The notes under the pieces are model-generated. The model did no database searches and was not told where the DNA came from. It saw nothing but the letters and a program-made list of their open reading frames with translations. 11,455 bases of DNA from Oculatellaceae cyanobacterium bins.114 (GTDB taxonomy: Bacteria; Cyanobacteriota; Cyanobacteriia; Elainellales; Elainellaceae). The stretch covers positions 1 to 11,455 of the forward strand of contig JANRJA010000047.1 in the NCBI GenBank assembly GCA_033764315.1, read 5' to 3'. Made by a program: the position numbers and the translations under genes. Of this stretch, positions 164 through 10,676 are shown one piece after another; within the stretch, counting starts at the first letter, position 1; each line of letters begins with the position of its first letter.

Positions 164-1075
164 ATGTTAAACTACGCCAAAGTTCAAGGTAAACCCTACA
201 TTCTGCAAAGTCTGACTGGACTCAAGCCAGCAGAGTTTGAGCAATTGCTGACCAGCTTTGATGGGGCATGGCAGGAGTACATCGAGCGGGAGTATGTGCA
301 ACGACCGCGGGCGCGCCGGTATGGTGGGGGACGTCATGCGGAACTAAGCAGCAGTGCCGATAAGTTGCTATTCATCCTGGTGTACTTCCGGTTGTATCCG
401 ACTCAAGTGGTGCAAGGCTTTCTGTTTGGCTTGGGGCAAACACAAGCGTGTGAGTGGATTCACAAATTAAGTGGGATCCTCAATCAAGCCTTGGGCTACG
501 AGAAACAACTGCCAGAGCGTTCACCTGCCCGGTTGGAGCAGGTGTTGAGTGAGTGTCCGAGTTTAGAATTTTTGATGGACGGGACTCATCGACCCATAAA
601 TCGTCCGAAAGACCGGGACCAGCAGCAGGACTACTACAGTGGTAAGAAGAAGCGTCACACGGTAAATAACGTGGTGATTAGCGAACGGGGTGGCAAGGTG
701 AAGTTTTTGAGCGACACTTATTGCGGTCGGGTGCATGACAAGGCGATTTGCGACGGGGAGGACTATCAGTTTCCACCGGGGAGCACCGTTTGCCAAGACC
801 TGGGATTTCAAGGATTTGCCCCACCAGGAGTGAGGATTAAGCAACCGAAGAAGAAACCCCGTAACCAGGAGTTAAGTGAGAGCGATCAACAACACAATCA
901 GGAGATTTCGAGCGAGCGGGTTGAGATTGAACATCACATGAGTGGCATCAAGCGCTGCAACATTGTGGTGCACAAGTTTCGCAACCGGATGAAAGACTAT
1001 GTGGATGAGGTGATGGAAACGGCGTGTGGGCTGCACAACTTCCGCCTCACCCATCGTCAACTCAAAGTTGCTTAA
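164..1075 (+). CDS. DDE transposase (HTH_Tnp_4 + DDE_Tnp_4-like)
   Basis: 303 aa. N-terminal SLTGL..EF, DKLLFILVYFRLYPTQ HTH region, catalytic motifs MDGT..PINRP, YSGKKKRHT, QDLGFQG and RVEIEH..GIKR. Confidence 0.93.
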   Translation: MLNYAKVQGKPYILQSLTGLKPAEFEQLLTSFDGAWQEYIEREYVQRPRARRYGGGRHAELSSSADKLLFILVYFRLYPTQVVQGFLFGLGQTQACEWIHKLSGILNQALGYEKQLPERSPARLEQVLSECPSLEFLMDGTHRPINRPKDRDQQQDYYSGKKKRHTVNNVVISERGGKVKFLSDTYCGRVHDKAICDGEDYQFPPGSTVCQDLGFQGFAPPGVRIKQPKKKPRNQELSESDQQHNQEISSERVEIEHHMSGIKRCNIVVHKFRNRMKDYVDEVMETACGLHNFRLTHRQLKVA

Positions 1076-1626: not shown

Positions 1627-2169
1627 TTATGCGTTAGGGTTCTTAGGCACATGAAAATGGAAGCGTTTTCCTGAATCTTGCCAAACGTCATAATTGGCAA
1701 GGATTAGGCGTTCCTTCACAGTTGCGGGCTCAAGCTTAAGCGTCTTCGCTAGCCAAAGTCGAAATTCGTCAGCTTTTTCCTTGCTAACAGTAATGACCTG
1801 ACTCTCTTTGAAGAACTCTCTGATCTTGACCAGTGTTGCTTTGTATTTTGATTGAGTTGTTTTAGCCAGGTCAGGTAATTTTGCTTCAAAGAATCGTTTG
1901 AATAGGTCAGCAACTTTCACCTGTTCCCGACGTTGTGCAGTTGTCGAGGATTTGTATTTCTCAAGGGTGGGGTCGAAGTTTCCAGTCGCCATATCCCCTT
2001 CGATAATCCGAGCTTTTCCCTCTCCAACCGTCCGGTTCAGTTTAGTGTCGGGCAAACCAGTGTAGTGATAGTAGCGTTTATACTGCCAAGTCCACACAAG
2101 CCTTAGTCTTTCTGTGAAGGATTGAACAACGACGGTTCCCTTCAAGGCTTTCTTCCGCTTCTCTGACAT
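1627..2169 (-). pseudogene. Truncated tyrosine integrase (arm-binding DUF3596-like and core-binding/SAM-like domains; catalytic domain missing)
   Basis: RLRLVWTWQYKRYY..GLPDTKLNR...KARIIEGDMATGNFDPTLEKYK is typical of cyanobacterial integrase N-termini. Resemblance ends after TVKERLI (about 1700), no R-H-R-H-Y catalytic motifs are present, and the gene lies next to a tRNA-derived att. Confidence 0.85.
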
Positions 2170-2329: not shown

Positions 2330-2334
2330 GAAAA

Positions 2335-2381
2335 AGCCCGTGACGAGGATTGAACTCGTGACCTCACCCTTACCAAGAGTG
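2335..2381 (-). other. 3' fragment of tRNA-Thr(GGT), att core of an integrative element (not a functional tRNA)
   Basis: Minus strand reads CACTC-TTGGTAA-GGGTG-AGGTC-ACGAG-TTCAATC-CTCGT-CACGGGC-T: anticodon arm (GGT), T-arm and 3' acceptor strand. No D-arm or 5' acceptor strand lies upstream. Confidence 0.92.
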
Positions 2382-2440
2382 TATCAGATCTACATAAAGC
2401 TTCTTCAGAGAGGCAATTTCAGCCATTCTCAATAAGACCG

Positions 2441-2527: not shown

Positions 2528-3154
2528 CTACCGAACTAATAACTTGTTTTGGGCGTTCGCCTGTTGAATCACAAAGCTGTTGCTGGTAAAAACTTGGATA
2601 CCTGGAACGATAGCGTAGTCCATATCATCGGTAATAATTCTGACTTGTCCTGATCCTGCTTTGCTAATAGCTTCGAGAATCAGTAGGTCATAACCATCCA
2701 AGGCTTGAGTTTGGAAGCGTGCCAGAGCCGCGCTCGTTGTGTCATCATCAATGGTCAACCTAACAGGTACCGCGATCGCCTCTACTTGAGTCCAAGCAGA
2801 CCGAACTTGAGACACAACATTTAGTCTCTCTGCTGGAAGATTGTGGCGGTATTCTTTTGGTCTTATAAATCCATTAGCTTGAATATAAATTTCTCGCTCA
2901 GTTTTCTCAATGATATGAGCGAGTTCAGCAAGGATCAGTCCAAGATAGGTCAGAGTCGATCCTTGAGAAAGGGCTGACGACAGGTAGCTAGAATACTCGC
3001 TGATTTTTGCGGGAGCGGTGGGATGTGAAACACTAGCGTTACTGTAGGTCTGCCAGAACCAAACGTTAGTATCGACCAAGAAGATGTCATCCTGTTGAGG
3101 AGTATCGTTTCTAATATCAATGACATCGGCTTGAACGCTGAGATTGACTGGCAT
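2528..3154 (-). CDS. PIN-domain protein (putative ribonuclease toxin)
   Basis: 208 aa with the acidic PIN motifs FLVDTNVW, LAELAH, LDGYDLLI and IITDDMDY. Confidence 0.88.
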   Translation of the reverse strand: MPVNLSVQADVIDIRNDTPQQDDIFLVDTNVWFWQTYSNASVSHPTAPAKISEYSSYLSSALSQGSTLTYLGLILAELAHIIEKTEREIYIQANGFIRPKEYRHNLPAERLNVVSQVRSAWTQVEAIAVPVRLTIDDDTTSAALARFQTQALDGYDLLILEAISKAGSGQVRIITDDMDYAIVPGIQVFTSNSFVIQQANAQNKLLVR

Positions 3155-3156
3155 AC

Positions 3157-3504
3157 CTAGAAGCTAGAGGCGTATTCTTCCAACACCGTATCGACCGCTC
3201 TCTGGTACTGCGGGTCAGTGTAGTAACGCTTTGCGCTAGTAATTACCTGCCTTAAAACAGTTTGCCCATTAGTATTGAGGTTTGTAAAGCTCAGTAAACA
3301 ATTTAGGTTTTCTACTGAAATGTCTTTTAGAAGCTGCCCGACAGCATTGTTGAAGAAGGGGGAGGCAAAAATTTTCACTCCAGCAAAATCTAACTCAATC
3401 GGGGTTTCTGCTATCAAAGCTGGATGAATTAAGTCATAAACTTTCTGCCCACTATCAGCGGCAATTGCATACTCGCCAGCAATTTCATATATCCTATAGA
3501 GCAT
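3157..3504 (-). CDS. STAS-like domain protein (DUF4325-like)
   Basis: GQKVYDLI...IELDFAGVKIFASPFFNNAVGQL pattern. Start reassigned to the ATG at 3504, which has an upstream AGGGAG SD-like sequence. The stop is 2 nt before the PIN ATG. Confidence 0.85.
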   Translation of the reverse strand: MLYRIYEIAGEYAIAADSGQKVYDLIHPALIAETPIELDFAGVKIFASPFFNNAVGQLLKDISVENLNCLLSFTNLNTNGQTVLRQVITSAKRYYTDPQYQRAVDTVLEEYASSF

Positions 3505-3518
3505 TCTTTTTTCTCCCT

Positions 3519-4433
3519 CTAGAACCACGGCTTCTCAAAATCAGAGATTTCTGAGGCTAGACAGTAGTAAGACTCATCACACCCAAATGCGATATTGACA
3601 AGTGCCCCAGAGAAATTAGTACATTTGTCCTCGCATCTCATTCCATTATCGTCGATCGTGACACAACCATCATTACTGAAAATCATGAGGTTTCCATGAT
3701 TTTTCGTAACAAATTCTTGAAGCAAGCTTAATCCACTCCCACCACAGATGTCATCTTGCTTTGTGGTGTTTCCAGGTAAAAAAGCCCAGGTTAATGCCTC
3801 TGTGGCAGACTTTGTTGAATTCATCGGTAAAGAACGGACACTATTAGGGATACCGATACCAAAGTCAATGACGGTTAACTGAAGAACACCCATGTAGGGG
3901 TAGTGCTGCCCACAACTGAATACTCCAATCTCAGAACGGCTGTGCTCGAAGGCGTTTAAGTAAATTTCTGAGGTTTGCCCAGTAATCGCCTCCTGAAGGG
4001 CAGGACTGATATTGACCCAACCCTTCCCTAACCACTTGTAACGGAGATAGTCTGCGATCGCGTTTGGTTCATGCTGGAGATCGCAGCGGTAAGGGATTGA
4101 ATTGCCATCCCAAGGATTGAGGTTACAACCAAAGTCGCAGAGAAAACCGTTTTGAGCCAAATTCATGTGAATTTTGCGAGGCAAACTTTCCCAATCGAAC
4201 GTTACTCGACCACCGCGGAATTCAATCAAGCGAATCAAGCCGCCCAAGAAAGCAACACCGTTATGCCCCAGGAATTCGCAGTAGTGAAAGTCAATAGCAA
4301 TGTCTAGCTGACTTTCAGGTAAGTGCTGGATGTCGTGCCATAAGGCAAAAAGTTTATCGAAGTAGCGAGGGTCATCGTAAATCGTGGGGACATACAGGAT
4401 GGGATGAGGTAGGGATGGGAGGTTTAACAGCAC
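3519..4433 (-). CDS. STAS-like + HATPase (GHKL) protein, RsbW/SpoIIAB-like putative serine kinase/ATPase
   Basis: N-box SEIYLNAFEHS, G1 DFGIGI, G2 GGSGL, G3 GALV. N-terminal IAIDFHYCEFLGHNGVAFLGGL..GGRVTF..LAQNGF is STAS-like. No HisKA H-box or TM segment. GTG start. Confidence 0.85.
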   Translation of the reverse strand: MLLNLPSLPHPILYVPTIYDDPRYFDKLFALWHDIQHLPESQLDIAIDFHYCEFLGHNGVAFLGGLIRLIEFRGGRVTFDWESLPRKIHMNLAQNGFLCDFGCNLNPWDGNSIPYRCDLQHEPNAIADYLRYKWLGKGWVNISPALQEAITGQTSEIYLNAFEHSRSEIGVFSCGQHYPYMGVLQLTVIDFGIGIPNSVRSLPMNSTKSATEALTWAFLPGNTTKQDDICGGSGLSLLQEFVTKNHGNLMIFSNDGCVTIDDNGMRCEDKCTNFSGALVNIAFGCDESYYCLASEISDFEKPWF

Positions 4434-4482
4434 ACCACATTAGAGAGTATTGAGGCAGTTTTTCCATTCATAGCACTGCTTG

Positions 4483-4511
4483 ATTGTAGAGGGACAGGCA
4501 AAAATTGTTAA
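4483..4511 (-). promoter_or_regulatory. Candidate sigma70-type promoter for the HATPase-STAS-PIN operon
   Basis: Minus strand TTAACA (4511-4506), 17-nt spacer, TACAAT (4488-4483), about 50 bp upstream of the GTG. Confidence 0.5.
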
Positions 4512-4562: not shown

Positions 4563-6113
4563 CTACTGACTGTCACTCAGCACAAAAATCAGTTCAACCT
4601 TCGCCCGTGTCAAAGCCACATAGTTTAGGTTCATTTCCTGCTTTAATTCCCAGGGCTGCTGATTCTCCCATATTAGAGGCAACTTGTCAGGGTAAAGGAT
4701 GAACACTCGATCTTCCTCCAAACCCTTTGCACGATGGACAGTAGAGAGAATCACCGACGGACGATCGTCGCTAAATAGTCCCTCAATCTCCATACAGAAA
4801 ACCTCCAGGGTTTTGCAGTTGAAGGCTTCGTAGCAGGCTTTTACCCCATTCACGCGATCGCTAAAGCTCTCAATCTGCGATTCTGAATTTGACCGTTGCT
4901 TCAGCTTGGCGATCCGGTTGGTTCGATACTTGTCCAGAAACTCGTCAAACTGACAGAAGTTGAAACTGGGAAGTTGTGCCACCTCACGGGCGATCGCCGT
5001 TAACATTCTTCCAATATCTCGCCCGCGAACTCGTGCTGGAATGCGTTGAGTAATCAAGTCAATGCAAAGGCTGATCAGTGGAGCCGTTAAGCGACAGAGA
5101 ATTAGATCCCCTTCCTTGACGACTTCCGGCAGTTTCGATTCTTTGATCGTTTCCACTTTGCCATCAGGTGCGCCTGGTGCTGCTTCAATTTGGGGCACAA
5201 TCTTTTTTGCCAGTTCCAGCACATTCACCGGGCAACGGTAACAGATGGAAAGGGGTAGTTCTTGGGCTTGTAATGTCTCTTTGATCCGGTTGAACGATTC
5301 ACAATCAGCCCCCGCAAATCCGTAAATGGCTTGCAGTGGATCACCGACTAACAGCATCCGCCCACCCCTCGCCCGCGCTTTGAGGATCAGATGCAGTTGT
5401 GCGGCTGAAAGATCCTGCGCTTCATCGACAAACACCCATTCAAACGTCTGCGGCTTCAGCTCCCAGACATAGGGTAAGTAGAGCATATCGGAGTAGTCGA
5501 TGATTTTGTCATGCCGCGCCAGGTCTTGCCCCTGTTCGAGGATGGTCACGATCGCTGGGATGATCACACTTGAATAAGGCACCTCCAAACCAAAGTGATT
5601 CGCCATGTCCAGAATAGCGATCGCACTACCTGGATCGGTCAAGGTGCATTGAGTGAAGTGAACCAGTTGCGCGATCGTACCCTGCAAGTCTTCCTGTTTT
5701 GGGATAGATTCCGGTTCATGCTCCGGATCTGCTCCTGCCCTTGCCCACTCCTGCAACTGCCGCGTATAGTGAGCCGTTAACTGTGAATGCAGCCCGATCA
5801 CCACATCCCGACATAGGTTTCGATATTTGTTGTCATCCAACACAGTTCGCCCTAGATAGCGAGACACACAGCGATTGCCGAGACTGTGAATGGTGCGACA
5901 GGTCATGGAGGGAATGCGATCACTCAAAGTTTTGGCAATGTGGGTATTGAATGCTGCAAACAATGCGCGGGAAGTTTTGAGTCGTTCTGAAGCTTGGATG
6001 AGTGTTGTGGTTTTACCGGAGCCTGCCACGGCATTTACGATCGCATCTCCGCGACCGTTGATAATCCAATCGAAGATAGCTTGTTGATAGTGAGACGGTG
6101 TGAAATTCGGCAT
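4563..6113 (-). CDS. UvrD/Rep-like superfamily 1 helicase (phage/mobile-element type)
   Basis: AVAGSGKTT, VDEAQD, VGDPLQAIYGFAGAD, LSICYRCP, STVHRAKGLE and YVALTRAK motifs; 516 aa. Confidence 0.93.
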   Translation of the reverse strand: MPNFTPSHYQQAIFDWIINGRGDAIVNAVAGSGKTTTLIQASERLKTSRALFAAFNTHIAKTLSDRIPSMTCRTIHSLGNRCVSRYLGRTVLDDNKYRNLCRDVVIGLHSQLTAHYTRQLQEWARAGADPEHEPESIPKQEDLQGTIAQLVHFTQCTLTDPGSAIAILDMANHFGLEVPYSSVIIPAIVTILEQGQDLARHDKIIDYSDMLYLPYVWELKPQTFEWVFVDEAQDLSAAQLHLILKARARGGRMLLVGDPLQAIYGFAGADCESFNRIKETLQAQELPLSICYRCPVNVLELAKKIVPQIEAAPGAPDGKVETIKESKLPEVVKEGDLILCRLTAPLISLCIDLITQRIPARVRGRDIGRMLTAIAREVAQLPSFNFCQFDEFLDKYRTNRIAKLKQRSNSESQIESFSDRVNGVKACYEAFNCKTLEVFCMEIEGLFSDDRPSVILSTVHRAKGLEEDRVFILYPDKLPLIWENQQPWELKQEMNLNYVALTRAKVELIFVLSDSQ

Positions 6114-7997: not shown

Positions 7998-8534
7998 ATG
8001 GACATCATGAGTCGGACATTGATTGATATTTCTCAGGATTTGCTGGAACTGGAAGCGGATTTGGAGAATCTGGAAGGGTTGCCCCAGGAGCAGGTGGAGG
8101 AATTGAAACTCTGGTTTGAAGAGTTGCAGGAGGAGCATCGGGAGGCACGCGATCGCAAGCTGGACAATTATGCTGCTTTGATCGCTGATCTGAGTGCCCG
8201 TGCTGAAGCTCGTCGGAATGAGGCGAAACGGTTGATGAGTCGTGCCCAAACCGATGAGGGTAAGGTGCGATCGCTCAAGTCGATGCTGCAATGGTTCTTT
8301 GCTCAACATGGCTATACGACAATCGAAACGGATCGTTATCGGTTAACGCTGGCAAATAGCGGCGGTAAGGCTCCTCTGTTGCTAGATGAGATGCCGATTG
8401 ATGACTTTCCGCCGCAGTTTGTGAAGGTGCTTCGGGAACCAGATAAGGACGCGATCCGCGAGGCGTTGGAAACGGGACAAGAGTTGGACTTTGCTCGATT
8501 GGGTGAGCGGCAGCAGTCCATCCGGATCAAGTAA
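7998..8534 (+). CDS. Siphovirus Gp157 family protein
   Basis: Acidic coiled-coil N-terminus, KLDNYAALI..L.A.AEARRNEAKRL, and C-terminal EPDKDAIREALETG...ARL.ERQQSIRIK. The start could alternatively be 8007. Confidence 0.88.
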   Translation: MDIMSRTLIDISQDLLELEADLENLEGLPQEQVEELKLWFEELQEEHREARDRKLDNYAALIADLSARAEARRNEAKRLMSRAQTDEGKVRSLKSMLQWFFAQHGYTTIETDRYRLTLANSGGKAPLLLDEMPIDDFPPQFVKVLREPDKDAIREALETGQELDFARLGERQQSIRIK

Positions 8535-8541
8535 TTCAACG

Positions 8542-8564
8542 GGTAGGGGGGCTAACCCCTTACC
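8542..8564 (+). other. Intergenic GC-rich hairpin
   Basis: GGTAGGGGG-GCTAA-CCCCTTACC, a 9-bp stem with one G-U pair and no U-tract. Confidence 0.5.
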
Positions 8565-8597
8565 TCCTCTGATCCTTTACCTCTTTTATCGTCCATC

Positions 8598-9113
8598 ATG
8601 AACCAAGCTACTTTAGCCCAACCAAGTTCTGAGCCAGCGATCGAGAAGCCATTATTCAAACCCTTTAAACGAGCGATCGTGGATATTCTGGCTGACCTTG
8701 CCAAACCTGTTCCCGATCGCTTCCTCGATACTCGCCAGCAAGGCGGCGCAACCCTGACTTATATTCCCTGGTACACTGTAGCGAAGTTGCTCGATTACTA
8801 TGCTCCTGGTTGGGAAGGGATGGTGACAGGGATGCACACGACGGGCGATCGACTCTTTGTTACTTACCGCATTTCGATCCATGCTGAAGAGGGCACCTTT
8901 ACCCGTGAGGCAACGGGAACGGAGTTGCTGAAGGAAGACAAACCGATTAAGCAAAACGGCAAAGTCTTAAAAGATGAACACGGCAACTCAATCACGAAAC
9001 GAGTTGAACTTGCTTATGGCGATCCCTCTTCCAATGCTGAGAGTATGGCGTTTCGTAGAGCAGCCGCTAAGTTTGGGTTAGGGTTGCATCTGTATGAGAA
9101 GGACGATCGTTAA
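8598..9113 (+). CDS. Rad52/Rad22-like single-strand annealing protein
   Basis: LTYIPWYTVAKLLDYYAPGWEG...REATGTE...YGDPSSNAESMAFRRAAAKFGLGLHLY; adjacent to Gp157 as in phage recombination modules. Confidence 0.88.
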   Translation: MNQATLAQPSSEPAIEKPLFKPFKRAIVDILADLAKPVPDRFLDTRQQGGATLTYIPWYTVAKLLDYYAPGWEGMVTGMHTTGDRLFVTYRISIHAEEGTFTREATGTELLKEDKPIKQNGKVLKDEHGNSITKRVELAYGDPSSNAESMAFRRAAAKFGLGLHLYEKDDR

Positions 9114-9163: not shown

Positions 9164-10129
9164 TCAAAATAACAAAGACGGTATGGGATCATTGGTGATC
9201 GCTTGAATCCCAGGATAGAGGTTTTGAAAATAGGGACGTTGAGCAAATAAAGCTTCTAGTTGCTTGCTGGTTAAGCACAAAATTTCAACACCACTAACCG
9301 TTTGGAATGATGCACCACACTCCAATGGAAAGCGTGACCAGCCAATTTGGGAATTACGCGCTAACTCCAACCTCTCCTTAAATGACATCGCTTTTACAGC
9401 CTGCCGCATTGCATCATACTCAGGCATTGGAATTGACGTTTGGGTGCCAAATCGGTTTTCAGTCACCACCTCATACATGCTTGGATTGTGCATAAGCCGT
9501 TCTCCAAACAATGGAATTAAGAGCACTTCAATCCCGTTGCAGCGGGTGCGCCAAAAAGCTTCTGACGGACCTCGAACAACCTCCACCCATCTAATCAAAC
9601 TGTTTGGTTTTCGGTTGATGGCTTGCAAGCTTTTCCGAACTACACCTGTGACAGCCCGCGTCTCTGTAGAAGCAGACAAATACCCTAAAACAACCTTCTT
9701 CAACTGCTGCTCATTCGACGGGCAAATCCCAAAGCCAATTACTCGTTCGTTTAACTTTGTCAGGGACACCTTAAACATTTGAAAGCTCGGTATAAGCTTT
9801 CGTTTTGGAATTTTGGTTTGATTGAGAGCAGGGCAATAATAGTCAATGTATTGGCGTTCTAAATCATTCAGTTGGTTTTGGTTGCAACTGAGCCAAAACA
9901 ATTTCACTTCATACCGTCGATTGATTGCTTCAAGTTGAGGTAGGCGATGGTGGTTGCCCTGCCATCGATTTCTTAGATTTGTAGCTTGCCCCACGTAGAG
10001 AACATAATCACGGGCGATCGCAAAGTAAATTGCTGAACATTCTGGCAATTGGGATCTCTGTGTCAGTGTTAGAAATGGAAATGTACTAAATTCCTGCATT
10101 ACCTTCTCAAGCAGCTTTATCATCGACAC
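9164..10129 (-). CDS. GIY-YIG nuclease domain protein with an uncharacterised C-terminal region
   Basis: SAIYFAI...VLYVGQATNLRNRW...LERQYIDYYCPALN within the first ~105 aa. Start uncertain (10129 GTG, 10123 or 10099). Confidence 0.82.
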   Translation of the reverse strand: MSMIKLLEKVMQEFSTFPFLTLTQRSQLPECSAIYFAIARDYVLYVGQATNLRNRWQGNHHRLPQLEAINRRYEVKLFWLSCNQNQLNDLERQYIDYYCPALNQTKIPKRKLIPSFQMFKVSLTKLNERVIGFGICPSNEQQLKKVVLGYLSASTETRAVTGVVRKSLQAINRKPNSLIRWVEVVRGPSEAFWRTRCNGIEVLLIPLFGERLMHNPSMYEVVTENRFGTQTSIPMPEYDAMRQAVKAMSFKERLELARNSQIGWSRFPLECGASFQTVSGVEILCLTSKQLEALFAQRPYFQNLYPGIQAITNDPIPSLLF

Positions 10130-10166: not shown

Positions 10167-10676
10167 CTACTGCCCAGGACGAAAATTACGGGTAAAGTTC
10201 ATCCATTGGTCTACTTTAGTTCCAGTAATATTCAGGATTGGAATTCCACCTGTTCTCCTACTTGAGTTTCCGCCTTCCTCACTGCTGAAGGAAATTGTGG
10301 TATTTTCCATCTTGCCTAACCCGTAAGCAGAAGCTATGTCTGCTGCAAGACGGCAAGAAATCTGAAATCGACCCATTGGAATGCTCCCATTCCCAGCCCT
10401 GTAGCTCCAGGTCGTTCCTCCACTAATTCGCCCCATTTCACACATGTGGTGAGTCACTTCAAACATCTTGGCAACATGCACATCGTAGATTCGCAATTTG
10501 CCACCATAAGCTGGGCGAGTCGTGTTTGGATCAGGCACCGTTAGGCTATACATTTCCTCAGCCGTCGAAATAGTCATTGGTAAAGCAGTATTTTGGGCAG
10601 ATGTAGGCGAAACTGCTGCCAGTGCAGAAACCAATGCCGTACCAAACAGCAACCCGAACTGACGACACAAACTCAT
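10167..10676 (-). CDS. Hypothetical exported protein
   Basis: N-terminal Arg, a hydrophobic stretch (FGLLFGTALVSALAAVS) and a plausible TSA/Q cleavage site. Confidence 0.7.
   Translation of the reverse strand: MSLCRQFGLLFGTALVSALAAVSPTSAQNTALPMTISTAEEMYSLTVPDPNTTRPAYGGKLRIYDVHVAKMFEVTHHMCEMGRISGGTTWSYRAGNGSIPMGRFQISCRLAADIASAYGLGKMENTTISFSSEEGGNSSRRTGGIPILNITGTKVDQWMNFTRNFRPGQ

Follow-up and report, generated by a model that had tools for sequence, protein, structure and literature searches.

A probable vapKSC operon beside an att-like site in a cyanobacterial genome

Results

Organization of the locus

The window analyzed here is a stretch of 11,455 nucleotides from Oculatellaceae cyanobacterium bins.114 (contig JANRJA010000047.1). 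It contains three minus-strand open reading frames (ORFs) encoding, in order, a STAS-GHKL kinase, a lone STAS protein and a PIN protein, which we designate vapK, vapS and vapC on grounds given below (Table 1). The ORF coordinates agree with the tight spacing of 14 nt and then 2 nt described in a first-pass annotation made from the sequence alone; for vapS, the ORF list also holds a longer alternative GTG start at 3528. Each of the three genes is present in one copy in its own genome, and comparison with the nearest relative (L027) reveals purifying selection on all three (pN 0.16-0.20 and pS 0.76-0.81, with synonymous sites saturated). The region first taken as the operon ends at 4511 on the -35 element of a promoter-like match that is itself at chance level, five promoter matches being seen against 4.5 ± 2.0 expected, and terminator matches were likewise at chance level.

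Table 1. Features of the window, with positions counted from its first nucleotide
Feature	Position	Strand	Description
DDE_Tnp_4/HTH_Tnp_4 transposase	164-1075	+	
Truncated tyrosine integrase	1627-2169	-	Arm-DNA-binding and SAM-like N-terminal domains only
att-like copy, 3' part of tRNA-Thr(GGT)	2333-2382	-	47/50 bases identical to host gene on contig C77 (33928-33977)
vapC	2528-3154	-	PIN-fold RNase toxin by homology, 208 aa; D28, E77, D153, D156, D177 and D179 intact
vapS	3157-3504	-	STAS (DUF4325) antitoxin by homology, 115 aa from ATG; putative phospho-acceptor S48, short C-terminal helix region
vapK	3519-4433	-	304 aa, GTG start; N-terminal STAS (1-103) and SpoIIAB-like GHKL (109-287)
Sigma-70-like promoter match	4483-4511	-	5' of vapK; at chance level
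UvrD-like superfamily 1 helicase	4563-6113	-	Directly upstream of vapK; no match next to the operon among 80 related loci
Gp157 gene, then 171-aa ORF	7998-9113	+	171-aa ORF without Pfam match
321-aa protein	9164-10129	-	GIY-YIG at N terminus; C-terminal part without assignment
169-aa ORF	10167-10676	-	Apparent signal peptide; no Pfam, NCBIfam, PHROG or PADLOC match

The neighborhood encodes a terminase small subunit-like protein, Gp157, a Cro/C1 helix-turn-helix (HTH) protein, DUF3768, two GIY-YIG proteins and the UvrD helicase. We take the 171-aa ORF that follows Gp157 to resemble a single-strand annealing recombinase. An att site next to the operon had been proposed, and an att-like sequence copying the 3' portion of a tRNA-Thr gene does lie 146 bases downstream of vapC, followed by the truncated integrase and then by an insertion sequence (IS). 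The operon looks like cargo of a decayed prophage-like element, placed at its att end. Cargo end, att and integrase follow one another as they would where tandem elements meet or at an attP junction. On contig C77 the tRNA-Thr gene lies among ordinary-looking host ORFs, with no integrase next to it (in an assembly 90.7% complete), and two of the three mismatches between the att-like copy and this gene are compensatory, pairing with each other in the T-stem; together, these two observations suggest that the site is an attP-like relic acquired from another host's tRNA. Rfam and ARAGORN returned no matches on the window, and tRNA arrays elsewhere in the genome comprise 24 genes on C69 (26989-29180) and seven on C117 (99-931). 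Contig C28 opens with the same 143 bases as the contig analyzed here.

The upstream helicase and the other element genes were considered as parts of the system and rejected for want of co-conservation: tblastn of ten window neighbors against 80 related loci (E ≤ 1e-5) found no match beside the operon. Since none of these ten recurs there, the system is the trio alone. Pfam found neither a sigma factor nor a PP2C phosphatase among the 16 window ORFs, in keeping with the first-pass annotation. PADLOC had no model for the STAS or PIN protein and only a weak DrmA match for the kinase (E 1.5e-4), its results for six window proteins included no named defense system apart from helicase-domain matches to GajB, and no member of the trio matched NCBIfam above the cut-off.

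Domain structure and conservation of the kinase

The kinase gave a weak Pfam match to HATPase_c (E 0.017, below cut-off), and its domains were assigned from an AlphaFold2 model built on a 58-row alignment (pLDDT 91.9). VIA-align identifies residues 1-103 as a STAS fold, with TM1442 (Z score of 10.5, rmsd 2.4 and 96 aligned residues) and RsbV (PDB ID: 6m36, Z score of 10.1, rmsd 2.6 and 94 aligned residues) as structural matches, and residues 109-287 as a SpoIIAB-like GHKL domain (PDB ID: 1til, Z score of 13.4, rmsd 2.8 and 135 aligned residues). A Foldseek search of the PDB with the same model gave GHKL matches, with no STAS among the matches listed; VIA-align recovered both domains. The two are joined directly, leaving no room between or in front of them for an HTH or a histidine-bearing dimerization domain, which accords with the earlier description of a STAS-GHKL protein lacking a His-phosphoacceptor box.

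The kinase retains F54, E156/N160, D190-G192-G194 and G232-G234. Among 119 homologs drawn from the best 120 of 879 matches, F54 is Phe in 116 (the other three are gaps) and N160 is present in all 119. At position 277, in the last GHKL motif, the window protein has Ala where 116 of the 119 have Thr and two others have Ala; judged from sequence, this substitution may weaken the kinase. T277A is its sole departure across 89 conserved columns, against a homolog median of 2 (n = 119). The VapK model of Chambers et al. (EMBO J 2026; PMC13373217) has a basic groove for single-stranded DNA (ssDNA) and draws K180 and K181 beside the DNA without describing them as conserved; the window protein has Y180 and M181 at these positions, both of which vary widely in the family (Lys at 180 in 47/119 homologs and at 181 in 29/119). 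A scan of viral contigs using the kinase gave no pattern match, and comparison with INPHARED phages returned 10 distant records with 26-34% identity.

The trio matches the published VapKSC system

Chambers et al. (EMBO J 2026; PMC13373217; PDB ID: 9Z7O) have already named VapKSC, crystallized it and demonstrated protection against a phage. The crystal structure of Escherichia VapS2VapC2 shows the STAS protein bound to the PIN protein. Escherichia VapC is toxic, its toxicity is abolished in D28A and is rescued by VapS, and neither S48E nor a C-terminal deletion of VapS retains the rescue. The complete system gave about 2-log protection against Bas42, the one phage concerned, and protection was lost in D28A, S48A and VapK F54A (PMC13373217). 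Phosphorylation of VapS S48 by VapK was inferred by those authors from the S48E, S48A and F54A mutants; activation by ssDNA was demonstrated for the relative CapK and modeled for VapK, the Escherichia protein being insoluble. They also allow a role in stress response. Their search began from vapK, and they list 289 operons in Dataset EV3, only 103 of the 289 being near other defense genes (PMC13373217). The main text contains the word "cyanobacteria" zero times, and term searches of it brought up no passage on kinase-less operons. A full-text literature search located the name VapKSC in the EMBO J paper and preprint copies of it alone, and DUF4325 in three papers. An earlier survey had noted, in 2017, a PIN cluster coupled to DUF4325 genes (Matelska et al., PMC5499597).

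The window STAS protein belongs to PF14213/DUF4325 (E 7e-17), and its sole PDB sequence match at E ≤ 1 is Escherichia VapS (9z7o_A, E 1.2e-17), with which residues 7-112 align ungapped, S48 falling on S48. This is the motif Ser singled out in the first-pass annotation; of 79 STAS proteins from related loci, 76 have Ser or Thr at position 48. Likewise, the sole PDB sequence match of the PIN protein at E ≤ 1 is Escherichia VapC (9z7o_C, E 6.7e-44, residues 7-206), D28 aligning on D28. Pfam gave no match for the window PIN protein at E ≤ 0.1; homologs of it from E. coli and Deinococcus score above the PF01850 cut-off. The acidic motifs, correctly read as intact, comprise six residues (listed in Table 1) that are invariant in a 21-row alignment. 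By these matches the STAS protein would itself be the antitoxin VapS, which corrects the earlier statement that no cognate antitoxin is present.

Because VapK has no solved structure, we took an E. coli locus (L106, 6047-7906) as a stand-in. Its PIN protein matches 9z7o_C from end to end (E 3.8e-122), and its kinase, compared by eye, differs little from the VapK sequence printed in Appendix Table S2. VapK numbers in Chambers et al. run 5 ahead of that printed sequence; with the offset applied, the published F54 and N160 fall on F54 and N160 of the window kinase. Identity between window and L106 is 43% for the kinase (over 289 aa, E 5e-79), 37% for VapS and 45% for VapC. The E. coli operon stands at a prophage end beside tail-fiber genes, between mntR and phage tail genes. 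Among 5426 complete E. coli genomes, just 2 matched a Rahnella query over at least 80%.

Ten of the related loci come from strains named in Dataset EV3, matched by strain name and not by gene identifier. The seven cyanobacterial loci among them are 58-70% (VapK), 54-61% (VapS) and 48-67% (VapC) identical to the window. A FastTree phylogeny of 45 intact trios places the window within a cyanobacterial clade beside L027, with weak support (0.67). Gene order in the window is also that of published VapKSC. On these matches in sequence, fold, residues and synteny, we assign the trio to vapKSC, with the basic logic of a kinase-controlled toxin-antitoxin module, at a probability of roughly 0.93. The operon is real, intact and already described, and cyanobacterial members are already in EV3. 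The novelty that the first-pass annotation had entertained therefore falls away, as it had itself foreseen should the operon match a described system; the operon looks new because VapKSC has as yet no name in PADLOC-DB 2.0, Pfam or NCBIfam.

Relatives and uneven loss of the kinase

Matches to the PIN protein occur in 18 of 301 genomes of a phylum sample, its own genome included. A GTDB scan yielded 105 loci, of which the best 80 were compared. The STAS gene adjoins the PIN gene in 79 of these 80, and all three genes are intact in the order K-S-C in 42. Setting aside eight loci with a partial PIN gene and eight with an intact PIN gene and less than 1.1 kb upstream leaves 64, in all of which the STAS gene is intact. 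Of these 64 loci, 41 have an intact kinase gene and 13 a partial one; in the other 10 no kinase ORF was found, and tblastn picks up a remnant at one of them (L050).

vapK is therefore broken or missing in 23/64 loci versus 0/64 for vapS, where kinase loss scaled by gene length predicts about 10 STAS losses. We treat this difference as supportive and attach no p-value to it, since the loci are related (many are Nostoc), were selected on the PIN gene and have the kinase further from it than the STAS gene. A counterexample outside the 64, among the eight loci set aside with an intact PIN gene, is a MAG contig (L095) in which a frameshifted STAS gene stands beside an intact PIN gene. Judged from sequence, the pattern fits a STAS protein that is the obligatory antitoxin and a kinase that is a dispensable trigger.

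The genes next to kinase-less pairs are ordinary ones, for example one encoding a TPR protein at L061; at L093 and L050 the neighbors are ORFs that we take to be psaB-like and ATP synthase gamma-like. Kinase-less L093 (6683-8606, Cronbergia sp. UHCC 0137) has a 227-aa gene in place of vapK, and its STAS protein, an N-terminally extended 204-aa ORF, has Ala at position 48. At L033 (6537-8001), about 1.46 kb is inserted between intact vapS and vapC and the kinase is partial. The L086 locus is truncated where its contig stops.

Discussion

The first-pass annotation proposed that partner-switching parts had been rewired to gate a PIN RNase, possibly against phage, and this is what has been demonstrated or proposed for Escherichia VapKSC (PMC13373217). 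Carried over to the window, the mechanism would run as follows. In the resting state VapS would sit on a VapC dimer (2:2) and keep the RNase off, as seen for the Escherichia proteins and assumed here by homology, the interface enclosing S48 and the C-terminal helix of VapS lying near the VapC active site. Upon phage infection or DNA damage, ssDNA would probably bind VapK around F54, between its STAS and GHKL domains. VapK would then phosphorylate VapS at S48, a step that draws on the mutants in PMC13373217, and VapS would let VapC go. Freed VapC would cut cellular RNA, and the resulting growth arrest would protect the lysogen population by abortive infection.

A reading that is compatible with membership in VapKSC, and that we consider unlikely yet worth keeping in mind, is that the cyanobacterial module is triggered by something other than ssDNA, or that its role is general dormancy upon DNA damage and not phage defense. 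The two modeled groove lysines are missing from the window kinase and variable in the family, ssDNA activation of VapK is a model, only 103 of 289 operons lie near other defense genes, and Chambers et al. leave room for a role in stress response (PMC13373217). Against this, the window kinase keeps F54, whose mutation ended protection in Escherichia, and the window and E. coli copies both stand at ends of prophage-like elements.

It is rather doubtful, in our view, that cyanobacterial vapKSC operons repeatedly lose the kinase to become trigger-less two-gene VapS-VapC modules, locked or under another input, with the window copy, given its T277A and missing groove lysines, possibly retuned to a different signal or en route to that state. 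Some of these pairs stand in chromosomal housekeeping neighborhoods, and L093 combines Ala at position 48 with the extended STAS protein. If true, such shedding would define a class of toxin-antitoxin modules made of two genes, with STAS as the antitoxin. Kinase-less pairs of this sort would be missed by Chambers et al. because their search began from vapK.

We hold it improbable that the window carries a copy whose kinase is already crippled, so that VapS-VapC would persist on a decaying element as a simple addiction pair that can no longer be triggered. T277A does fall at a nearly invariant GHKL position, the kinase gene is lost or broken in more than a third of the 64 related loci, and the element itself has a truncated integrase with an IS alongside. 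However, the vapK ORF is whole with N160 and the G boxes intact, T277A is a single departure where the homolog median is 2, and two other homologs share the Ala. Finally, a canonical RsbW/RsbV-like pair serving a distant sigma factor, with the PIN gene an unrelated neighbor, finds an echo in the closest folds (SpoIIAB for the kinase domain, RsbV/SpoIIAA for STAS) and is scarcely credible given the near-constant STAS-PIN adjacency (79/80 loci), the homolog crystal structure with STAS on PIN, the rescue of toxicity by VapS in Escherichia (PMC13373217) and a window whose 16 ORFs held no sigma factor or PP2C phosphatase by Pfam.

Taking the trio as vapKSC, the interest of the architecture lies in a partner-switch kinase that gates an RNase. 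The window copy adds an intact cyanobacterial allele, and because Escherichia VapK is insoluble, other VapK alleles could help to test whether VapK phosphorylates VapS in response to ssDNA. That relatives lose the kinase so much more often than the STAS protein is independent comparative support for the published roles.

Among known systems, SpoIIAB/SpoIIAA and RsbW/RsbV share with the window a GHKL Ser kinase fold and a STAS substrate fold; they differ in that the window kinase has a STAS domain of its own, that phosphorylation would release a toxin, and that the window is without a sigma factor or PP2C phosphatase. The PIN.4 cluster (Matelska et al., 2017; PMC5499597) can be compared by its stated genomic coupling to DUF4325 alone, and the accessible text of that paper does not mention a kinase. 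CapK-CapS likewise pairs a STAS-GHKL kinase with a STAS partner phosphorylated at a conserved Ser, and has an aromatic residue, W68, with an equivalent in the window kinase. However, CapK-CapS, a pair of transcriptional regulators from the paper on VapKSC, is an HTH-STAS-GHKL kinase with a STAS-winged HTH repressor, encoded upstream of an immune operon, whereas the window kinase lacks the HTH, its STAS domain beginning at residue 1, and the 115-aa STAS protein lacks the winged HTH and is covered by its match to VapS; the expected output is a PIN toxin and not transcription. We therefore ruled out CapK-CapS. With VapKSC the window operon has in common gene order, gene sizes, domain layout, S48, D28, F54 and N160, and differs from the Escherichia system in being a cyanobacterial allele, without the two modeled ssDNA-groove lysines and with A277 for Thr, carried on a decayed tRNA-Thr-type element.
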